Origin: Bacillota bacterium
GTDB taxonomy: Bacteria; Bacillota; Clostridia; Ch29
DNA length: 64,000 nucleotides
NCBI GenBank assembly: GCA_040766775.1
Contig: JAXGPT010000007.1
Coordinates: 1,500-65,499 of the forward strand
Direction: 5' to 3'
Part shown: positions 43,064 through 50,636 of the stretch, one piece after another
Layout of the letters: each line of letters opens with the position of its first letter
Numbering within the stretch: position 1 is the stretch's first letter
Position numbers and translations under genes: made by a program
The notes under the pieces: model-generated
Seen by the model: only the letters and a program-made list of their open reading frames with translations
What the model was told of the DNA's origin: nothing
Databases searched by the model: none

Positions 43064-45143
43064 TTATACCACTTTTAAACCTTCGGCTGCCAGTCTTCTT
43101 TGCAGGATATTGACGCATTCCTCCCCTTCCATGGACAGCCTTGTGCCCTTGGGCCCTTTACGAATCACTACAAGCCCGTATTTCGCCAAGATGTTAAGCC
43201 GGTTTCTTACCATCTGTTCAGTCATTTTGTTGCCCCCGCCGCACAGCTGCGCAAGACTTCTCCTGCTTAAATAAACCCTGCCTTCTTCCTGCGCTTTTTT
43301 CATAGTCGAAAGGATAAGAAATATTTCGTCCACCGGCATTTCCTTTTCCAGCAGCTGCAGCAGCTTTTCCTTCTGCATTGTGCTGTCCTTGGAAATAAAG
43401 GGCAGGTCCTTAACCCTCACAGGGCCTTCTCCCACAATGTGATAAAGGTACTCGATTACGTTTTCCAGCTCGCGGATGTTTCCCGGCCAGTCGTATTCCA
43501 TGAATTTCTCCATGGCCTGGTCGCTTATTATAAGCTCCTTACCCCCGGGGAACCTTTCCAGCATCTTTTCAATTAGAATCGGTATATCCTCCTTGCGCTC
43601 CCTTAGGGGCGGTATTCGAATGGGCAGCACCTTAAGCCTGTAAAACAAATCCTCCCTGAACTTGCCCGCGCTCACAAGGTCCTCCAAGTTTTTATTGGTG
43701 GCAGCTATAATCCTTACATCTATAGGTATAATTTTTGTGCCGCCTATGCGCAGAACTTCCTTTTCCTGCAACACCCTAAGCAGCCGGGCCTGGATCTTCA
43801 TTGAGGCGTCCCCTATCTCGTCCAGGAATATGGTTCCCTTGTGGGCCTGCTCGAACAGCCCTGCATGCCCGCCTTTCCTTGCACCGGTAAAAGCACCCTC
43901 CTCGTAGCCGAACAGCTCGCTTTCCAGCAGGTTTTCCGGCAGTGCCGCAAAGTTAACCGCCACAAAGGGCCCGTGCTGTTTATTGGAGGCCTTGTGTATT
44001 GCATGGGCGAACAGCTCTTTTCCTATGCCGCTTTCGCCTATGAGAAGAAGGGTTGAATTGCTTCTTGCAAGTTTCCTTGCTATTTCCTTTGTCTCAGTTA
44101 TTTTTGCTTTTGCCTATTATATTTGAAAAATCGTATTTTGAGGTGTGACCCCTTTTCATTAGGTTGGTCCTTACGATATTCTCCATCTCAATAATTTCCG
44201 ACAGGTCCTTGAAAGTTATTATAACCCCGTTGTATACGTCATCTTTGATAATGGGCATCATGGTAAGCAGTATTTTTTCCCATTATTTCATGGACTTTTC
44301 GATAAAGGCCGAAATTCTTCCCCAAAGGCTCTTTGCCTCGAAATCCAAAATATCGTCCAGGTTTATATCTCCATTTTTGTTCTTTCCCCTTAAACCGAAC
44401 AGCTTATTTGCATTTTCATTGCTGAACATAATACTGCCATTGCTGTCTATTCCCACTATGCCGTCATTTATTACGTTGAGTATGGTATTTAATTGCTTCA
44501 TTATATTATCGTTGGTTTCCAGCGCTTTTACCACTTTTTTGCTGGAATACACGAAGTCCTGCAGGAACCTTACCGATAACAGGTTTGTTCTCTCGTCCAT
44601 AATTTTCAACTTCATCATAATCTCAGTTATGGTAGTAAGGTCAATCTTGCTGTAACCCAGGTCTATGACGTTTTCCACGTAATCGGGAACCATATGGATT
44701 TCTCCTGTTGTGATTGCATAATTGGCATGCAGCGAAAACCTTTGTCCCGGGTAATATGGGTACATCCTTATATGAGTTATGCCCAGTCCTTCCAAAAGGG
44801 ATATGGAGTTTTCTGCAAGGTACTTGTTAACGTCGACAAACAGTACGTCTTCGCCCTTGGGTATTCTAAGCACATCCTCCAGCTTGGAATGGTTCAGCGC
44901 ACGCCTGGCCACCAGCACCTCCGACGACCTGGGGTCGATATACTTCATAGCCGTCTCCTTAAGGTATTCATGACTTATCAGTACCAGCTTGTCGTATATT
45001 TTTTCGTTTATACCCTCCAGTATGGAATACCCCCTGATTGTTACCTCCGGGCCCAAAAGGTTGGTAAGCTGGTTTATCACGTTTTCCTTATGCTTCTCGG
45101 AACGGGTTATTATGGACAAGCCGGATGGAGTTTCGGTTGACAT
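43064..45143 (-). CDS. sigma54-dependent enhancer-binding protein: N-terminal sensory region + PAS + AAA+ + C-terminal HTH (frameshifted at ~44.1-44.3 kb)
   Basis: [46 protein letters not shown]-like [25 protein letters not shown] and ATG at 45143. Confidence 0.92.
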
Positions 45144-45481
45144 GGTGTTTCCCCTCCTTCCTGAGGCAAAGTGCCTTGGTTTATTATATTGTAACAAAAA
45201 AGCATTAGGTATAAAATGGTTTTATTCAAAAAACCTTTTCGAACCATTTACATCACCGCCATCCTTTGTTGAAATACACTTCAGTTTTCCGGTGTGCCTC
45301 AGCAATTAAACAGGGGTCGGGCTTTTATAGCCCTTATTTATTAGCAAAGGGCTATTTTATTGGTTCTTTATGGTTCTTATCAATAACCCACTATCAGCCT
45401 ATATATTAAAAGCCCTTCATAATAAACCCTGCCAAGGGGCTATTATCGCATATAGGCAGCCCGCAGCCTCAAAAAAATGAT

Positions 45482-45497
45482 TGGCATGAATATTGCT
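45482..45497 (+). promoter_or_regulatory. sigma54 (SigL) -24/-12 promoter
   Basis: TGGCATGAATATTGCT, exact GG-N10-GC spacing; adjacent to a divergent EBP gene. Confidence 0.88.
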
Positions 45498-45614
45498 TGA
45501 TTCATTCGTAAGCTGATCAGCAAAATCGTTTTGAGGGGGGTGATATTGACATTTAATGGCATACAGTGGTGCGCTTAATCAATCGAATTTTTTATCCAAA
45601 TAGGAGGTCAAGAA

Positions 45615-48083: not shown

Positions 48084-48614
48084 ATGAGAAAAATCTTTAC
48101 CTTGCTTTTATTTTCCGGTATATTTGTTTCCCTATTGCTGCTCCCCGTCCTTGTGCTTGAAGTAAGGGTTGACGGCTCAGAGGAGCTTGTTTTTCAACAG
48201 CCGGCAAAAGCAGGAAGCTTATTCGAAGTCCACTGGATACATTCGGTTACACTGCAGCCGGTTATAGAAGTCTACCTTTTGGAAGCCCCAGGCAGAATCC
48301 CGATAGTTAAGATGACCTTTGATGAATTTGGACCAAATCTGCCGGCACACCCCGAGTTTAACCAGTACTGGGTTATTGAAGACGGAAAATATACCGTACT
48401 GGGCTACGAAAGAGTTTTCGAAAGGGTTCCGGTAACCATAGGTGCCGTTATAGCAGACCATACCCTTGTTTATAACGGGCGCTCCACTCCTTTGAAGGAC
48501 GTATACCGCCCCGGCGGGTATGTGCATATAGGTCTTACAGAAAAAAAACTATGCCAATTCTTGATTGAGGAGGTACAAATATGGCAGAAAGGCAGAAAGA
48601 CGACAGCGTTTTAA
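48084..48614 (+). CDS. DUF1850-like TAXI-associated protein
   Basis: N-terminal TM; WIHSVTLQPVIEVY and FGPNLP; typical position between TAXI SBP and fused permease. Confidence 0.8.
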   Translation: MRKIFTLLLFSGIFVSLLLLPVLVLEVRVDGSEELVFQQPAKAGSLFEVHWIHSVTLQPVIEVYLLEAPGRIPIVKMTFDEFGPNLPAHPEFNQYWVIEDGKYTVLGYERVFERVPVTIGAVIADHTLVYNGRSTPLKDVYRPGGYVHIGLTEKKLCQFLIEEVQIWQKGRKTTAF

Positions 48615-50591
48615 TAGACCAGATTAAACTGGATGAGGAAAAGTCCGATGAGATACTTGCCAAGTACGACCGGGAATTCGCTTTTAGAAGACTAGAGGGA
48701 CCGGTAGCAAAATTCGTATTTTTACTTGCGGTTGCCTGGTCACTGGCCCACCTGTATACGGCAGCCTTCGGAGTTTTCCCCTCCACGATACAAAGAGCTC
48801 CCCACGTTGGTATTGCCTTGGTACTTATATTTATTATGTATCCGGCCAAAAGAGGCAGCAAAAGCAGCAAGGTCGCATGGTATGATTACATTCTGGCCTT
48901 CCTTGGTTTCTCCGTTTCGGCCTACCACGTGATTTATTATAAGGAGCTGGTTTGGCGGGCTGGAGTATACAATACCACCGATATGATAGTCAGCGTTATA
49001 GCAGTTTTGTTGATTATTGAAGCTACCAGGAGACTGGCGGGGCCGGTTATGATCTCGTTAGCAACGTTCTTTCTGCTGTTCGCATACTTTGGTAATTATT
49101 TTCCGTCCTTCATGGCCCACCCGGGTCTTACGATAAAAAGGATAGCAGTTTTCCAGTGGCTAAGCACTGAAGGCATCCTAGGAACGCCTATCCAGGTATC
49201 CTCAACCTTTATATTCTTATTTATGCTTTTCGCTTCCTTTTTAAAAAAAAGCGGGGTCGGGGATTGGATGACGGAAATAGCAGTGGGTCTGACTGGCGGC
49301 GCCATAGGCGGTCCTGCCAAGGCGGCTGTTATCGCCAGCGCAGCCCAGGGTACCGTGTCCGGCAGCTCGGTTGCCAATACGGTGGGTACCGGCTCGGCAA
49401 CCATTCCCCTTATGAAAAGTATCGGCTATCGTCCTGCCTTTGCCGGTGCCGTTGAGGCGGCAGCATCCACCGGCGGGCAGCTTATGCCTCCCATAATGGG
49501 TGCCGCGGCCTTTATAATGTCGGAGTTTTTGAACATCCCATACGGAAAGATTGCGCTGGCTGCAGCCATTCCAGCCGTTCTATATTTTACCGGGATATTC
49601 ATCACCGTACACCTTGAAGCCAAAAAGGCCGGGCTTTTGGGACTACCCAAAGATAGACTGCCCAATTGGAAACTACTGCTTAAAAGAAAATGGTTCCTTG
49701 CAGCTCCCATATTTGGTATCATTTATCTATTGGTAAGCGGCTATACTCCTATGCTGGCCGCTTTTTATGCAATCATACTGTGTATAGGCGCATCCATGAT
49801 TCTAAAAGAAACCCGCATGTCCTTTAACGATATCATTTCAGCGCTGGAGGAGGGCGCCAAGTCCGCGCTGCCGGTTGTTGCAGCCTGTGCCACCGCCGGA
49901 ATTATTGTGGGCATTGTAACCCTTACAGGACTTGGTATGAAAATGTCAGGGGGCTTGGTGAGGTTGGCCGGCGGCAATATACCTCACCATGTTCTTTACA
50001 ATGATAGGCTCCCTTATACTGGGTATGGGTGTTCCAACGACGGCAAACTATATAATCCAGGCAACGGTTTCCGCCCCTGCTTTAATGACGTTGGGTGTAC
50101 CACCGCTGGCAGCCCATTTGTTCGTGTTCTATTTCGGAATAGTTGCGGATATTACCCCGCCTGTTGCGCTGGCAGCCTTTGCCGGTTCGGGTATAGCCCA
50201 GTCGGATCCGATGAAGACGGGCGTTGAGGCCTTTAAGCTTGGATTTGCAGCATACCTGGTACCGTACATTTTTGCGCTGAACCCAATACTGGTGCTTATA
50301 AACCTTGAGGGTCTATCCACCCCGTTGTTCATCTTACGTGTAATCTTTGCATTGGCTACGGCACTGGTGGGTATGCTTTGTATCGGCGCTTCGACAACTG
50401 CCTACTTTGTAACCAACGACAAATGGTATGAACGGATCCTGTTTTTCGTTGCGGGTGTTTCCGATACACCCCGGGATTCAAACCGATATATTCGGTGCGG
50501 TGGTCCTGGCGGGAACATGGTTCGTACAGAAATCACGGGTAAAAAGAAAGGCTACAGCGTAAAGGAAGCAACAGTCAATCCTGTTCATTAA
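48581..50591 (+). CDS. TRAP transporter fused 4TM/12TM permease (frameshifted; 3' end approximate)
   Basis: GGPAKAAV, SGSSVANTVGTG, EAAASTGGQLMPPIMGAAAFIM, GMGVPTTANY, ADITPPVALAAF. Confidence 0.93.
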
Positions 50592-50597
50592 ACCCTG

Positions 50598-50636
50598 AAG
50601 AGCCTTGCGGCAAAGCGCTGCCGCAGGCCCCTTTCG
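50598..50636 (+). terminator. hairpin after TRAP permease, probable terminator
   Basis: GCCTTGCGGCA-aagcgc-TGCCGCAGGC followed by CCCTTTC; weak U-tract. Confidence 0.5.

Follow-up and report, generated by a model that had tools for sequence, protein, structure and literature searches.

Methanogens and some bacteria have long been known to use beta-glutamate (3-aminoglutarate) as an osmolyte, and glutamate 2,3-aminomutase (Eam), reportedly described from Clostridioides difficile by Ruzicka and Frey in 2007, is to our knowledge characterised only as an enzyme, with a cellular role that is still guessed. A related logic is found in lysine fermentation, in which KamA and then Kce, the founding BKACE, join a 2,3-aminomutase and a beta-amino acid to the cleavage of a beta-keto acid with acetyl-CoA. 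The accumulation of beta-glutamate in methanogens is on record (PMC1224877), and the transporters closest to the one considered here are VcGluPQM of Vibrio cholerae (8S4J) and TtGluBP of Thermus thermophilus (1US4/1US5), which belong to the same solute-binding protein (SBP) fold family and likewise have a TRAP permease partner. Regulation of the kind seen here is known from clostridial sigma-54 operons, in which the gene of a one-component enhancer-binding protein (EBP) with PAS architecture lies beside its target and a -24/-12 promoter (PMC6615313). In this work, a stretch of 64,000 nucleotides from a Bacillota bacterium (contig JAXGPT010000007.1; hereafter the window) was found to hold an operon in which eam stands together with a TAXI-type TRAP importer under a dedicated sigma-54 activator and which, on balance, appears to serve the substrate-inducible uptake of beta-glutamate and its conversion to L-glutamate.

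The sigma-54 promoter sits between the divergent EBP gene and the operon eam-SBP-DUF1850-permease, and the parts of the unit are arranged as follows (window coordinates).

45197 to 43064, minus strand: EBP gene (sigma-54 enhancer-binding protein), divergent from the operon, from Pfam and NCBIfam scans
45216..45235, plus strand: distal candidate upstream activator site, inverted repeat ATGGTT-N9-AACC, direct repeat family D1, motif kept in relatives
45370..45389, plus strand: proximal candidate upstream activator site ATGGTTCTTATCAATAACCC, 112 nt 5' of TGGCA
45482-45497, plus strand: sigma-54 promoter TGGCATGAATATTGCT, -24 GG at 45483-45484 and -12 GC at 45495-45496
45615 (ATG) to 46878, plus strand: eam, predicted glutamate 2,3-aminomutase (radical SAM, KamA family; TIGR04368)
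46982-48031, plus strand: TAXI solute-binding lipoprotein (SBP) of the Met-type clade defined below (TIGR02122), frame intact in the window
48084-48614, plus strand: DUF1850 gene (PF08905, E 1.5e-15), N-terminal hydrophobic helix in the product, intact in the window
48581-50562, plus strand: fused TRAP permease (Q-M fusion and start of DUF3394; TIGR02123, DctM)
about 50602-50628, plus strand: GC-rich hairpin 3' of the permease stop codon in the minimum-free-energy fold, possible non-canonical terminator

All of the parts that an earlier first-pass annotation had described were located by open reading frame (ORF) listing and family scans within 43064-50562, confirming a self-contained unit of EBP, promoter, eam, TAXI SBP, DUF1850 gene and fused permease. 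The SBP scored 285.1 bits on TIGR02122 (cut-off 84.35) and has a lipoprotein-type N-terminus, the two permease pieces of the window gave 511.8 and 193.7 bits on TIGR02123 (cut-off 320.65), and the intact 661-aa permease orthologue of a related locus (L003) matched DctM with an E value of 1.1e-93; with the TAXI SBP and the fused Q-M permease encoded side by side, the pair has the make-up of a TAXI-type TRAP transporter. A terminator scan found no terminator-like site on the plus strand between eam and the SBP gene. The closing hairpin does fold as had been noted, but the scan does not list it as a canonical intrinsic terminator, its run of T being too weak, and the 132-nt segment has a z-score of -1.16.

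Conservation of the unit was followed from both ends. In a survey that used the large Eam piece of the window as query (the gene is split in this assembly, see below) and kept the best 80 of 107 confirmed loci, SBP and permease genes lie directly 3' of eam in 17 (L002-L015, L019, L020 and L022), an EBP is present in ten (L001, L003-L009, L011 and L019) and a DUF1850 gene in ten; L001 ends 65 nt past eam, its downstream side being unseen, and the SBP of L012 is fragmentary. The remaining eam loci have unrelated, mostly housekeeping neighbours. The reverse survey, which started from 12 aligned SBPs and kept 80 loci, placed eam directly 5' of the SBP gene in 23 of the 80. Counted by contig name, the two surveys together gave 28 distinct eam-TAXI contigs besides the window, with differing flanks and labelled Clostridia, Tissierellia, Peptococcaceae, Thermoanaerobacteraceae and Vulcanibacillus. 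The neighbourhood survey of eam homologues suggested at first pass was thus positive, and the unit is conserved as well as self-contained. In a tree of 77 Eam proteins, from which L076 and rows shorter than 330 aa were left out, the TAXI-linked proteins form one clade (SH-aLRT 98, 15 rows), those of L020 and L022 being placed in a separate clade.

Model scores and residue positions agree that the aminomutase is of predicted glutamate type, not lysine type, in line with its original annotation. The large piece in the window scores 583.6 bits on TIGR04368 versus 456.2 on the lysine model, and the intact L003 orthologue, 95% identical over that piece, gives 679.9, 497.6 and 374.2 bits on the glutamate, lysine and arginine models, respectively. 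The equivalog cut-off of TIGR04368 (650) is exceeded by the orthologues of L003, L125 (697.7) and L020 (713.3), as well as by the stand-alone enzyme of L036 (691.5). The radical-SAM CxxxCxxC motif, CGMYCRHC in Eam, aligns with CSMYCRHC of lysine 2,3-aminomutase (2A5H), and the Lys of GRGKTP, which we take to be the residue binding pyridoxal phosphate (PLP), aligns with that of GGGKTP, whereas Asp293 and Asp330 of 2A5H are replaced by Lys and Asn, a pair that Ruzicka and Frey are said to have given in 2007 as the signature of the glutamate 2,3-aminomutase family. In equivalog-level score (for the intact orthologue), CxxxCxxC motif and Lys/Asn pair, the enzyme is thus like that of C. difficile and the TIGR04368 family; it differs in standing in an operon with an importer and a dedicated activator, and in its proposed direction from beta to alpha. 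To judge by its score (585.8 bits, cut-off 525.4), a second KamA-family gene of the same genome (G000:C15:9383-10444; L083) encodes a lysine 2,3-aminomutase. The glutamate mutase model had no match in this genome, which is 72% complete, nor in the controls, and a search of the same genome for HGD-D gave weak partial matches only.

The SBP is related to glutamate-binding TAXI proteins of known structure (phmmer E 1e-32 to 4e-40), and its residues were mapped by alignment to 8S4J (VcGluP), 1US4 and 9OZ4. In VcGluP, Tyr45, Gln93 and Glu125 bind the alpha-amino group of L-glutamate; affinity for glutamate falls 990-fold in Q93A and 213-fold in Y45A, and Gln93, present in 54% of TAXI sequences, is suggested by the authors as a specificity site (PMC11574862). 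The window SBP retains Tyr58, Ser86 and Glu134 (equivalent to VcGluP Tyr45, Ser75 and Glu125) but has Met104 in place of Gln93 and Asn208 in place of Tyr200, and its 208-214 loop is remodelled relative to glutamate-specific TAXI SBPs; of the Gln93 and Tyr45 pair that marks the latter, only the tyrosine is kept, as Y58. Unlike VcGluP and TtGluBP, it is a lipoprotein of a Gram-positive lineage, and its operon adds the aminomutase and the sigma-54 activator.

Met104 is shared by the SBP of the window and by each of the 16 SBPs adjacent to eam in the eam survey, Gln being found at this position in two second TAXI copies of eam-survey loci. Over the 80 reverse-survey loci the residue is Met in 47, Gln in 24 and Val or Ile in 9, and eam lies directly 5' in 23 of the 47 Met-type loci compared to none of the 33 others. 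Met-type and Gln-type SBPs are split by a branch with 100% support and differ consistently at positions 161, 193, 210 and 214 as well as in the loop 208-211; the DUF1850 gene, found in 48 of the 80 TAXI loci, accompanies both types alike and is a common TAXI accessory gene. Because Met replaces the alpha-amino-binding Gln in every eam-linked SBP, import of beta-glutamate is favoured over that of L-glutamate.

Orthologous transporters also occur beside degradative enzymes, which favours beta-glutamate import as well. At three loci (L096 1133-3372, L099 2615-4806 and L104 3333-5104), a Met-type TAXI lies back to back with a class-III aminotransferase (PF00202, E 2e-103), a BKACE (PF05853, E 2.9e-99) and an RpiR-type regulator. 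The L096 SBP is nested in the otherwise eam-linked clade (support 95-96), and those of L099 and L104 are sister to that clade. The BKACEs score 321-333 bits, under the Kce cut-off of 382, and this non-Kce BKACE and the aminotransferase together may form a second route, one that handles a beta-amino dicarboxylate; given the glutamate-type aminomutase, a glutamate skeleton is implied, which beta-glutamate fits. In contrast to lysine fermentation, the aminomutase and the aminotransferase-BKACE pair are here alternatives beside the same transporter rather than consecutive steps, and the own genome additionally has the true lysine 2,3-aminomutase mentioned above. The notion of a single class-III aminotransferase group beside Met-type TAXIs was rejected: there are three unrelated groups with 25-30% mutual identity, two of them being EctB of ectABC and a glutamate-1-semialdehyde (GSA) aminomutase-like enzyme, and only L096, L099 and L104 hold the BKACE pair. 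The GSA-aminomutase-like enzyme is encoded after a TAXI SBP and permease at L115 (4929-9437) and L118 (4905-9487), both labelled Desulfovibrio; it resembles glutamate-1-semialdehyde 2,1-aminomutase with 366-368 bits, under the family cut-off. Beta-amino-acid transaminases resemble the glutamate-1-semialdehyde aminomutase family.

The placement of riboswitches separates the two settings of eam. A cyclic di-AMP (c-di-AMP) riboswitch lies just 5' of eam and on the same strand at four of the 12 stand-alone loci scanned (L036 7330-7467, L039 7522-7653, L043 7357-7493 and L055 7536-7702) versus none of the six TAXI-linked loci scanned, and a scan found none in the window. As these riboswitches precede stand-alone and not TAXI-linked eam genes, they too favour beta-glutamate import for the latter. 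The contigs bearing them are labelled Syntrophomonas, Clostridia and Eubacteriales, and the Syntrophomonas one has an Hsp20 gene next door. Na+ riboswitches are reported to precede some eam genes, interpreted as osmoprotectant genes (PMC9337991).

Control by sigma-54 and an EBP through an exact -24/-12 promoter held up as first described, with an AAA+ domain bearing GAFTGA, a -24 GG/-12 GC promoter and a genomic rpoN all present. The EBP consists of an N-terminal alpha/beta domain, a weak PAS match, a Sigma54_activat domain (PF00158, E 2.3e-67), an AAA lid and a C-terminal helix-turn-helix-like tail, and the GAFTGA loop was read directly in the translation. The promoter is the sole TGGCAYN5TTGCW match in the 64 kb window (0.18 expected by chance), rpoN is intact in the same genome (478 bits), and a -24/-12 element lies 5' of eam in all ten eam-survey loci with an EBP and also at L089, L106, L110 and L116. 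PrdR, which controls the proline reductase genes of Clostridia, is the best NCBIfam match of the AAA+ half; on its model (NF041552) the C-terminal half of the EBP scores 342.2 bits and the N-terminal half 19.8, far under the cut-off of 795, and the N-terminal residues, about 200 in number, match no named family. The predicted structure of this N-terminal domain reached a mean predicted local distance difference test score of 57 from a 10-row alignment, and its fold matches are generic flavodoxin-like proteins with Z up to 8.1. Leads from the protein atlas, PrpR_N (0.80) among them, stayed below 0.9, and the domain was left unassigned.

Ten of the 11 EBP-eam intergenic regions carry an inverted repeat, ATGGTT-N8/9-AACC(C), located 80-270 nt 5' of the promoter, compared to a mean of 0.32 in 300 shuffles, an enrichment that is optimistic as the pattern was drawn from these same sequences. 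It is to these repeats that the EBP may bind. GCCCTT/AAGGGC inverted repeats in the intergenic region were also considered as activator sites and are not conserved in relatives. At two distant eam-TAXI loci (L125 1571-3379 and L163 1652-3448), whose SBP is 43% identical, eam is directly preceded on the same strand by the gene of another EBP of about 600 aa, which has no match to the N-terminal sensor of the window protein, and the short gap before eam lacks a -24/-12 element.

In the mechanism we propose, external beta-glutamate would be captured by the lipoprotein SBP and imported via the fused TAXI-TRAP permease, while the EBP would sense beta-glutamate or a derivative through its N-terminal or PAS domains, bind the ATGGTT-N9-AACC repeats and activate sigma-54 RNA polymerase. 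The radical-SAM, PLP-dependent aminomutase would then run from beta to alpha and the resulting L-glutamate enter central metabolism, which would explain the absence of any further encoded enzyme. In related bacteria, the second route would lead through the class-III aminotransferase to 3-oxoglutarate, from which the BKACE would form acetoacetate and malonyl-CoA with acetyl-CoA. The scavenging and conversion put forward in the first-pass annotation are thus favoured by the pocket, the aminotransferase-BKACE pairing and the riboswitch contrast, ligand and direction being predictions from these.

A broader proposal is more tentative, and we regard it as possible rather than probable. Met-type TAXI proteins may form a clade of beta-amino-acid importers with beta-glutamate as founding substrate, by which fermenters of methanogenic reactors could feed on this osmolyte once it is set free by methanogens and by Eam producers under riboswitch control, such as Syntrophomonas. 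They might do so via two routes, one with Eam reversed under a sigma-54 beta-glutamate sensor and the other with transamination and a new BKACE subfamily. Should this prove correct, beta-glutamate would gain its first known transporter, sensor and catabolic pathways. Our literature search found no paper linking eam with a TRAP or TAXI transporter, none mentioning DUF1850, and no description of this system or of a beta-glutamate transporter, sensor or catabolic route. Neither the aminomutase nor TRAP nor the present operon appears in the main text of the clostridial sigma-54 reconstruction, and its supplements may list this EBP (PMC6615313). The parts are of known kinds; what is new is their combination, together with the ligand predicted for them and a reversed role for the enzyme. 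The locus offers a concrete, testable cellular role for glutamate 2,3-aminomutase, a predicted ligand for an orphan TAXI branch with a Gln-to-Met residue switch open to mutation, and a candidate set of ligand, EBP and promoter.

The stretch is held by 20 of the 24 listed runs, from 16 studies; those with a named habitat come from anaerobic digesters, biogas fermenters and bioreactor sludge, several others being labelled only 'metagenome'. RNA contigs of two biogas metatranscriptomes cover eam through the permease gene, those from 45543 (run X16) or 45635 (run X15) to 50275 having depths of 117-510, compared to 1-28 over the EBP gene in both runs; depth is one figure per contig and was not used for ranking genes. 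Single RNA contigs bridge eam and the SBP gene (46231-47287 and 45940-47700) as well as the SBP, DUF1850 and permease genes (47578-50275 and 47702-50275). The promoter bin 45276-45539 has an RNA depth of 0 in both runs, yet is covered in both DNA runs, a weak indication that the transcript starts 3' of the promoter. The operon is widespread in anaerobic digesters and represented in RNA libraries, and the locus hints at metabolite cross-feeding there.

Several observations weigh against the assignment of the operon to beta-glutamate uptake and conversion. The RNA contigs are compatible with one transcript and are no proof of it, of its start site or of relative expression. Neither the structure model nor the fold search nor the protein atlas assigned a ligand class to the EBP sensor domains, and both EBP and promoter are absent from six TAXI-linked loci (L010, L012, L013, L014, L020 and L022), namely the EBP-less ones with enough upstream sequence. 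The aminotransferase-BKACE pairing with TAXI is limited to three contigs, as are BKACE relatives at an identity of at least 84%, and aminotransferase-BKACE pairs about 50% identical occur without TAXI. Use of 3-oxoglutarate by a BKACE was reportedly described by Bastard et al. in 2014, and 3-oxoglutarate is absent from the BKACE substrates named in the NetSyn, CORE-cycle and machine-learning papers. About half of the Met-type SBP loci lack eam, seven of them having instead a 338-aa NicX/Peptidase_M29-like protein directly 5' of the TAXI gene (L100, L102, L103, L108, L109 (3772-4785), L117 and L120), and about ten Met-type loci have no conserved neighbour. Because of the eam-less half and the seven NicX/M29-like loci, the Met-type clade may hold more than one specificity. 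An osmolyte context is seen at L135 (2495-8802), where the genes of a Met-type TAXI SBP, a DUF1850 protein and a permease come directly after ectA-ectB-ectC on the same strand, and in the literature Eam is regarded as a source of the osmoprotectant beta-glutamate (PMC9337991 and PMC7835215). The NicX/M29-like loci belong to gut and rumen Bacillota and one Fusobacterium metagenome-assembled genome, and carry RpiR or LysR regulators.

The ectABC locus and the literature on Eam would both fit a module that builds up beta-glutamate inside the cell as a compatible solute, with L-glutamate or beta-glutamate imported and Eam running from alpha to beta, and so would the c-di-AMP riboswitches before stand-alone eam genes and the tie between VcGluP glutamate uptake and osmoadaptation reported in PMC11574862. 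However, the Gln that contacts the alpha-amino group is missing from the SBP, with eam-linked SBPs in a clade apart from the Gln-type, no riboswitch precedes the six TAXI-linked eam genes scanned, and the orthologous transporters are paired with degradative enzymes. Moreover, many TAXI-linked eam loci have a dedicated EBP with a sensor domain, and the EBPs of the reconstructed clostridial sigma-54 regulons mostly activate utilisation and fermentation genes (PMC6615313). The KamA-family gene near the ectABC genes of L135 is not Eam (316.6 bits, cut-off 650). This osmolyte alternative, already raised in the first-pass annotation, is therefore weakened by the pocket and the riboswitch contrast and kept alive by the one Met-type TAXI behind ectABC, and we consider it unlikely.

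The module might also handle another substrate, a related acidic alpha- or beta-amino acid or an amide, in which case the label glutamate 2,3-aminomutase would over-read a similarity. Few TAXI specificities are known, Gln93 being far from universal in the family (PMC11574862), Met-type SBPs are found with four different neighbour sets and with none, and the glutamate assignment of the TAXI-linked Eam clade is a prediction from sequence. Against this, the intact orthologues of L003, L125 and L020 score above the curated equivalog cut-off and about 180-240 bits lower on the lysine model, and Lys and Asn stand where 2A5H has its two lysine-binding Asp residues, as in the reported signature. We regard such a different substrate as rather improbable, and beta-glutamate uptake with conversion to L-glutamate remains the preferred explanation.

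Indels of 1-2 nt and in-frame TAA codons interrupt three genes of the unit in the window, with breaks near 44100 and at 44272-44323 in the EBP gene, at 45757, 45774 and 45837 in eam, and at 49979 and 50462 in the permease gene. Four public runs from four studies, two of DNA and two metatranscriptomes, were aligned to the stretch, their contigs being otherwise at least 95% identical to it. Relative to the window, all four have +TT at 44100, +TT at 44272 and +A at 44323 in the EBP gene, and -1 at 45757, +T at 45774 and -1 at 45837 in eam; in the permease gene, three runs have +TT at 49979, and the sole run covering both remaining sites has +TT at 50462 and +A at 50560. Correction of these indels returns each gene to one frame, matching the intact L003 orthologues of 693, 435, 349, 184 and 661 aa for EBP, Eam, SBP, DUF1850 protein and permease, respectively. 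Since the near-identical contigs of four other runs differ from the window at exactly those places, the breaks are errors private to this assembly, and in the natural population the genes are whole. The first-pass annotation had allowed that the eam indels could be real and the gene dead, a concern answered by the frame-restoring indels in all four runs.

Errors of the same kind extend beyond the module. Compared to two related contigs (about 92% nucleotide identity), 1-2 nt indels run along the whole alignment, and in the window from 37800 to 56700, as well as in the genome (G000), such indels, often in short homopolymers, split many genes, including flanking FabK-like (near 40092), FabH (near 40420), acetate kinase (AckA, 53500-53530) and patatin-like (near 56500) genes and a glutamate-dehydrogenase-like gene on contig C12. 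Coverage by ORFs of 250 aa or more is low on most contigs of this genome, typically 0.38-0.70, compared to 0.59-0.84 on related contigs for ORFs of at least 300 aa, and the best holder among the runs reaches at most 0.87 of the sampled words of the window. The rpoB (1254 aa) and rpoN genes of the same genome are unbroken, so that the errors are unevenly spread, a point for which we have no explanation. Decay of the locus, with real frameshifts and stops and a dead module in this organism, would fit the splitting of three of its five genes in the window, but it is most improbable given that each break covered by the four runs is absent from the near-identical contigs, RNA contigs included, that no holder run exceeds the above share of the words, that similar indels split the flanking and distant genes and that long-ORF coverage is low on most contigs. 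Gene calls from this assembly need comparison with relatives.

All four runs also contain a short contig of high depth that connects 46421 with 46596 and so passes over 174 nt within eam, its shorter side having 21 letters; it is probably a contig from another organism sharing conserved words. Just beyond the operon hairpin, a group II intron occupies 50695-52604 of the window on the minus strand (Rfam D1-D4 and domain V-VI), with its reverse transcriptase/maturase ORF split across two frames. The intron is missing from L002 and L003, and in a DNA contig of run X1 position 50694 is followed immediately by 52605. An RNA contig of run X16 joins 52575-52604 to 50694, as an excised circle, lariat read-through or tandem copy would.

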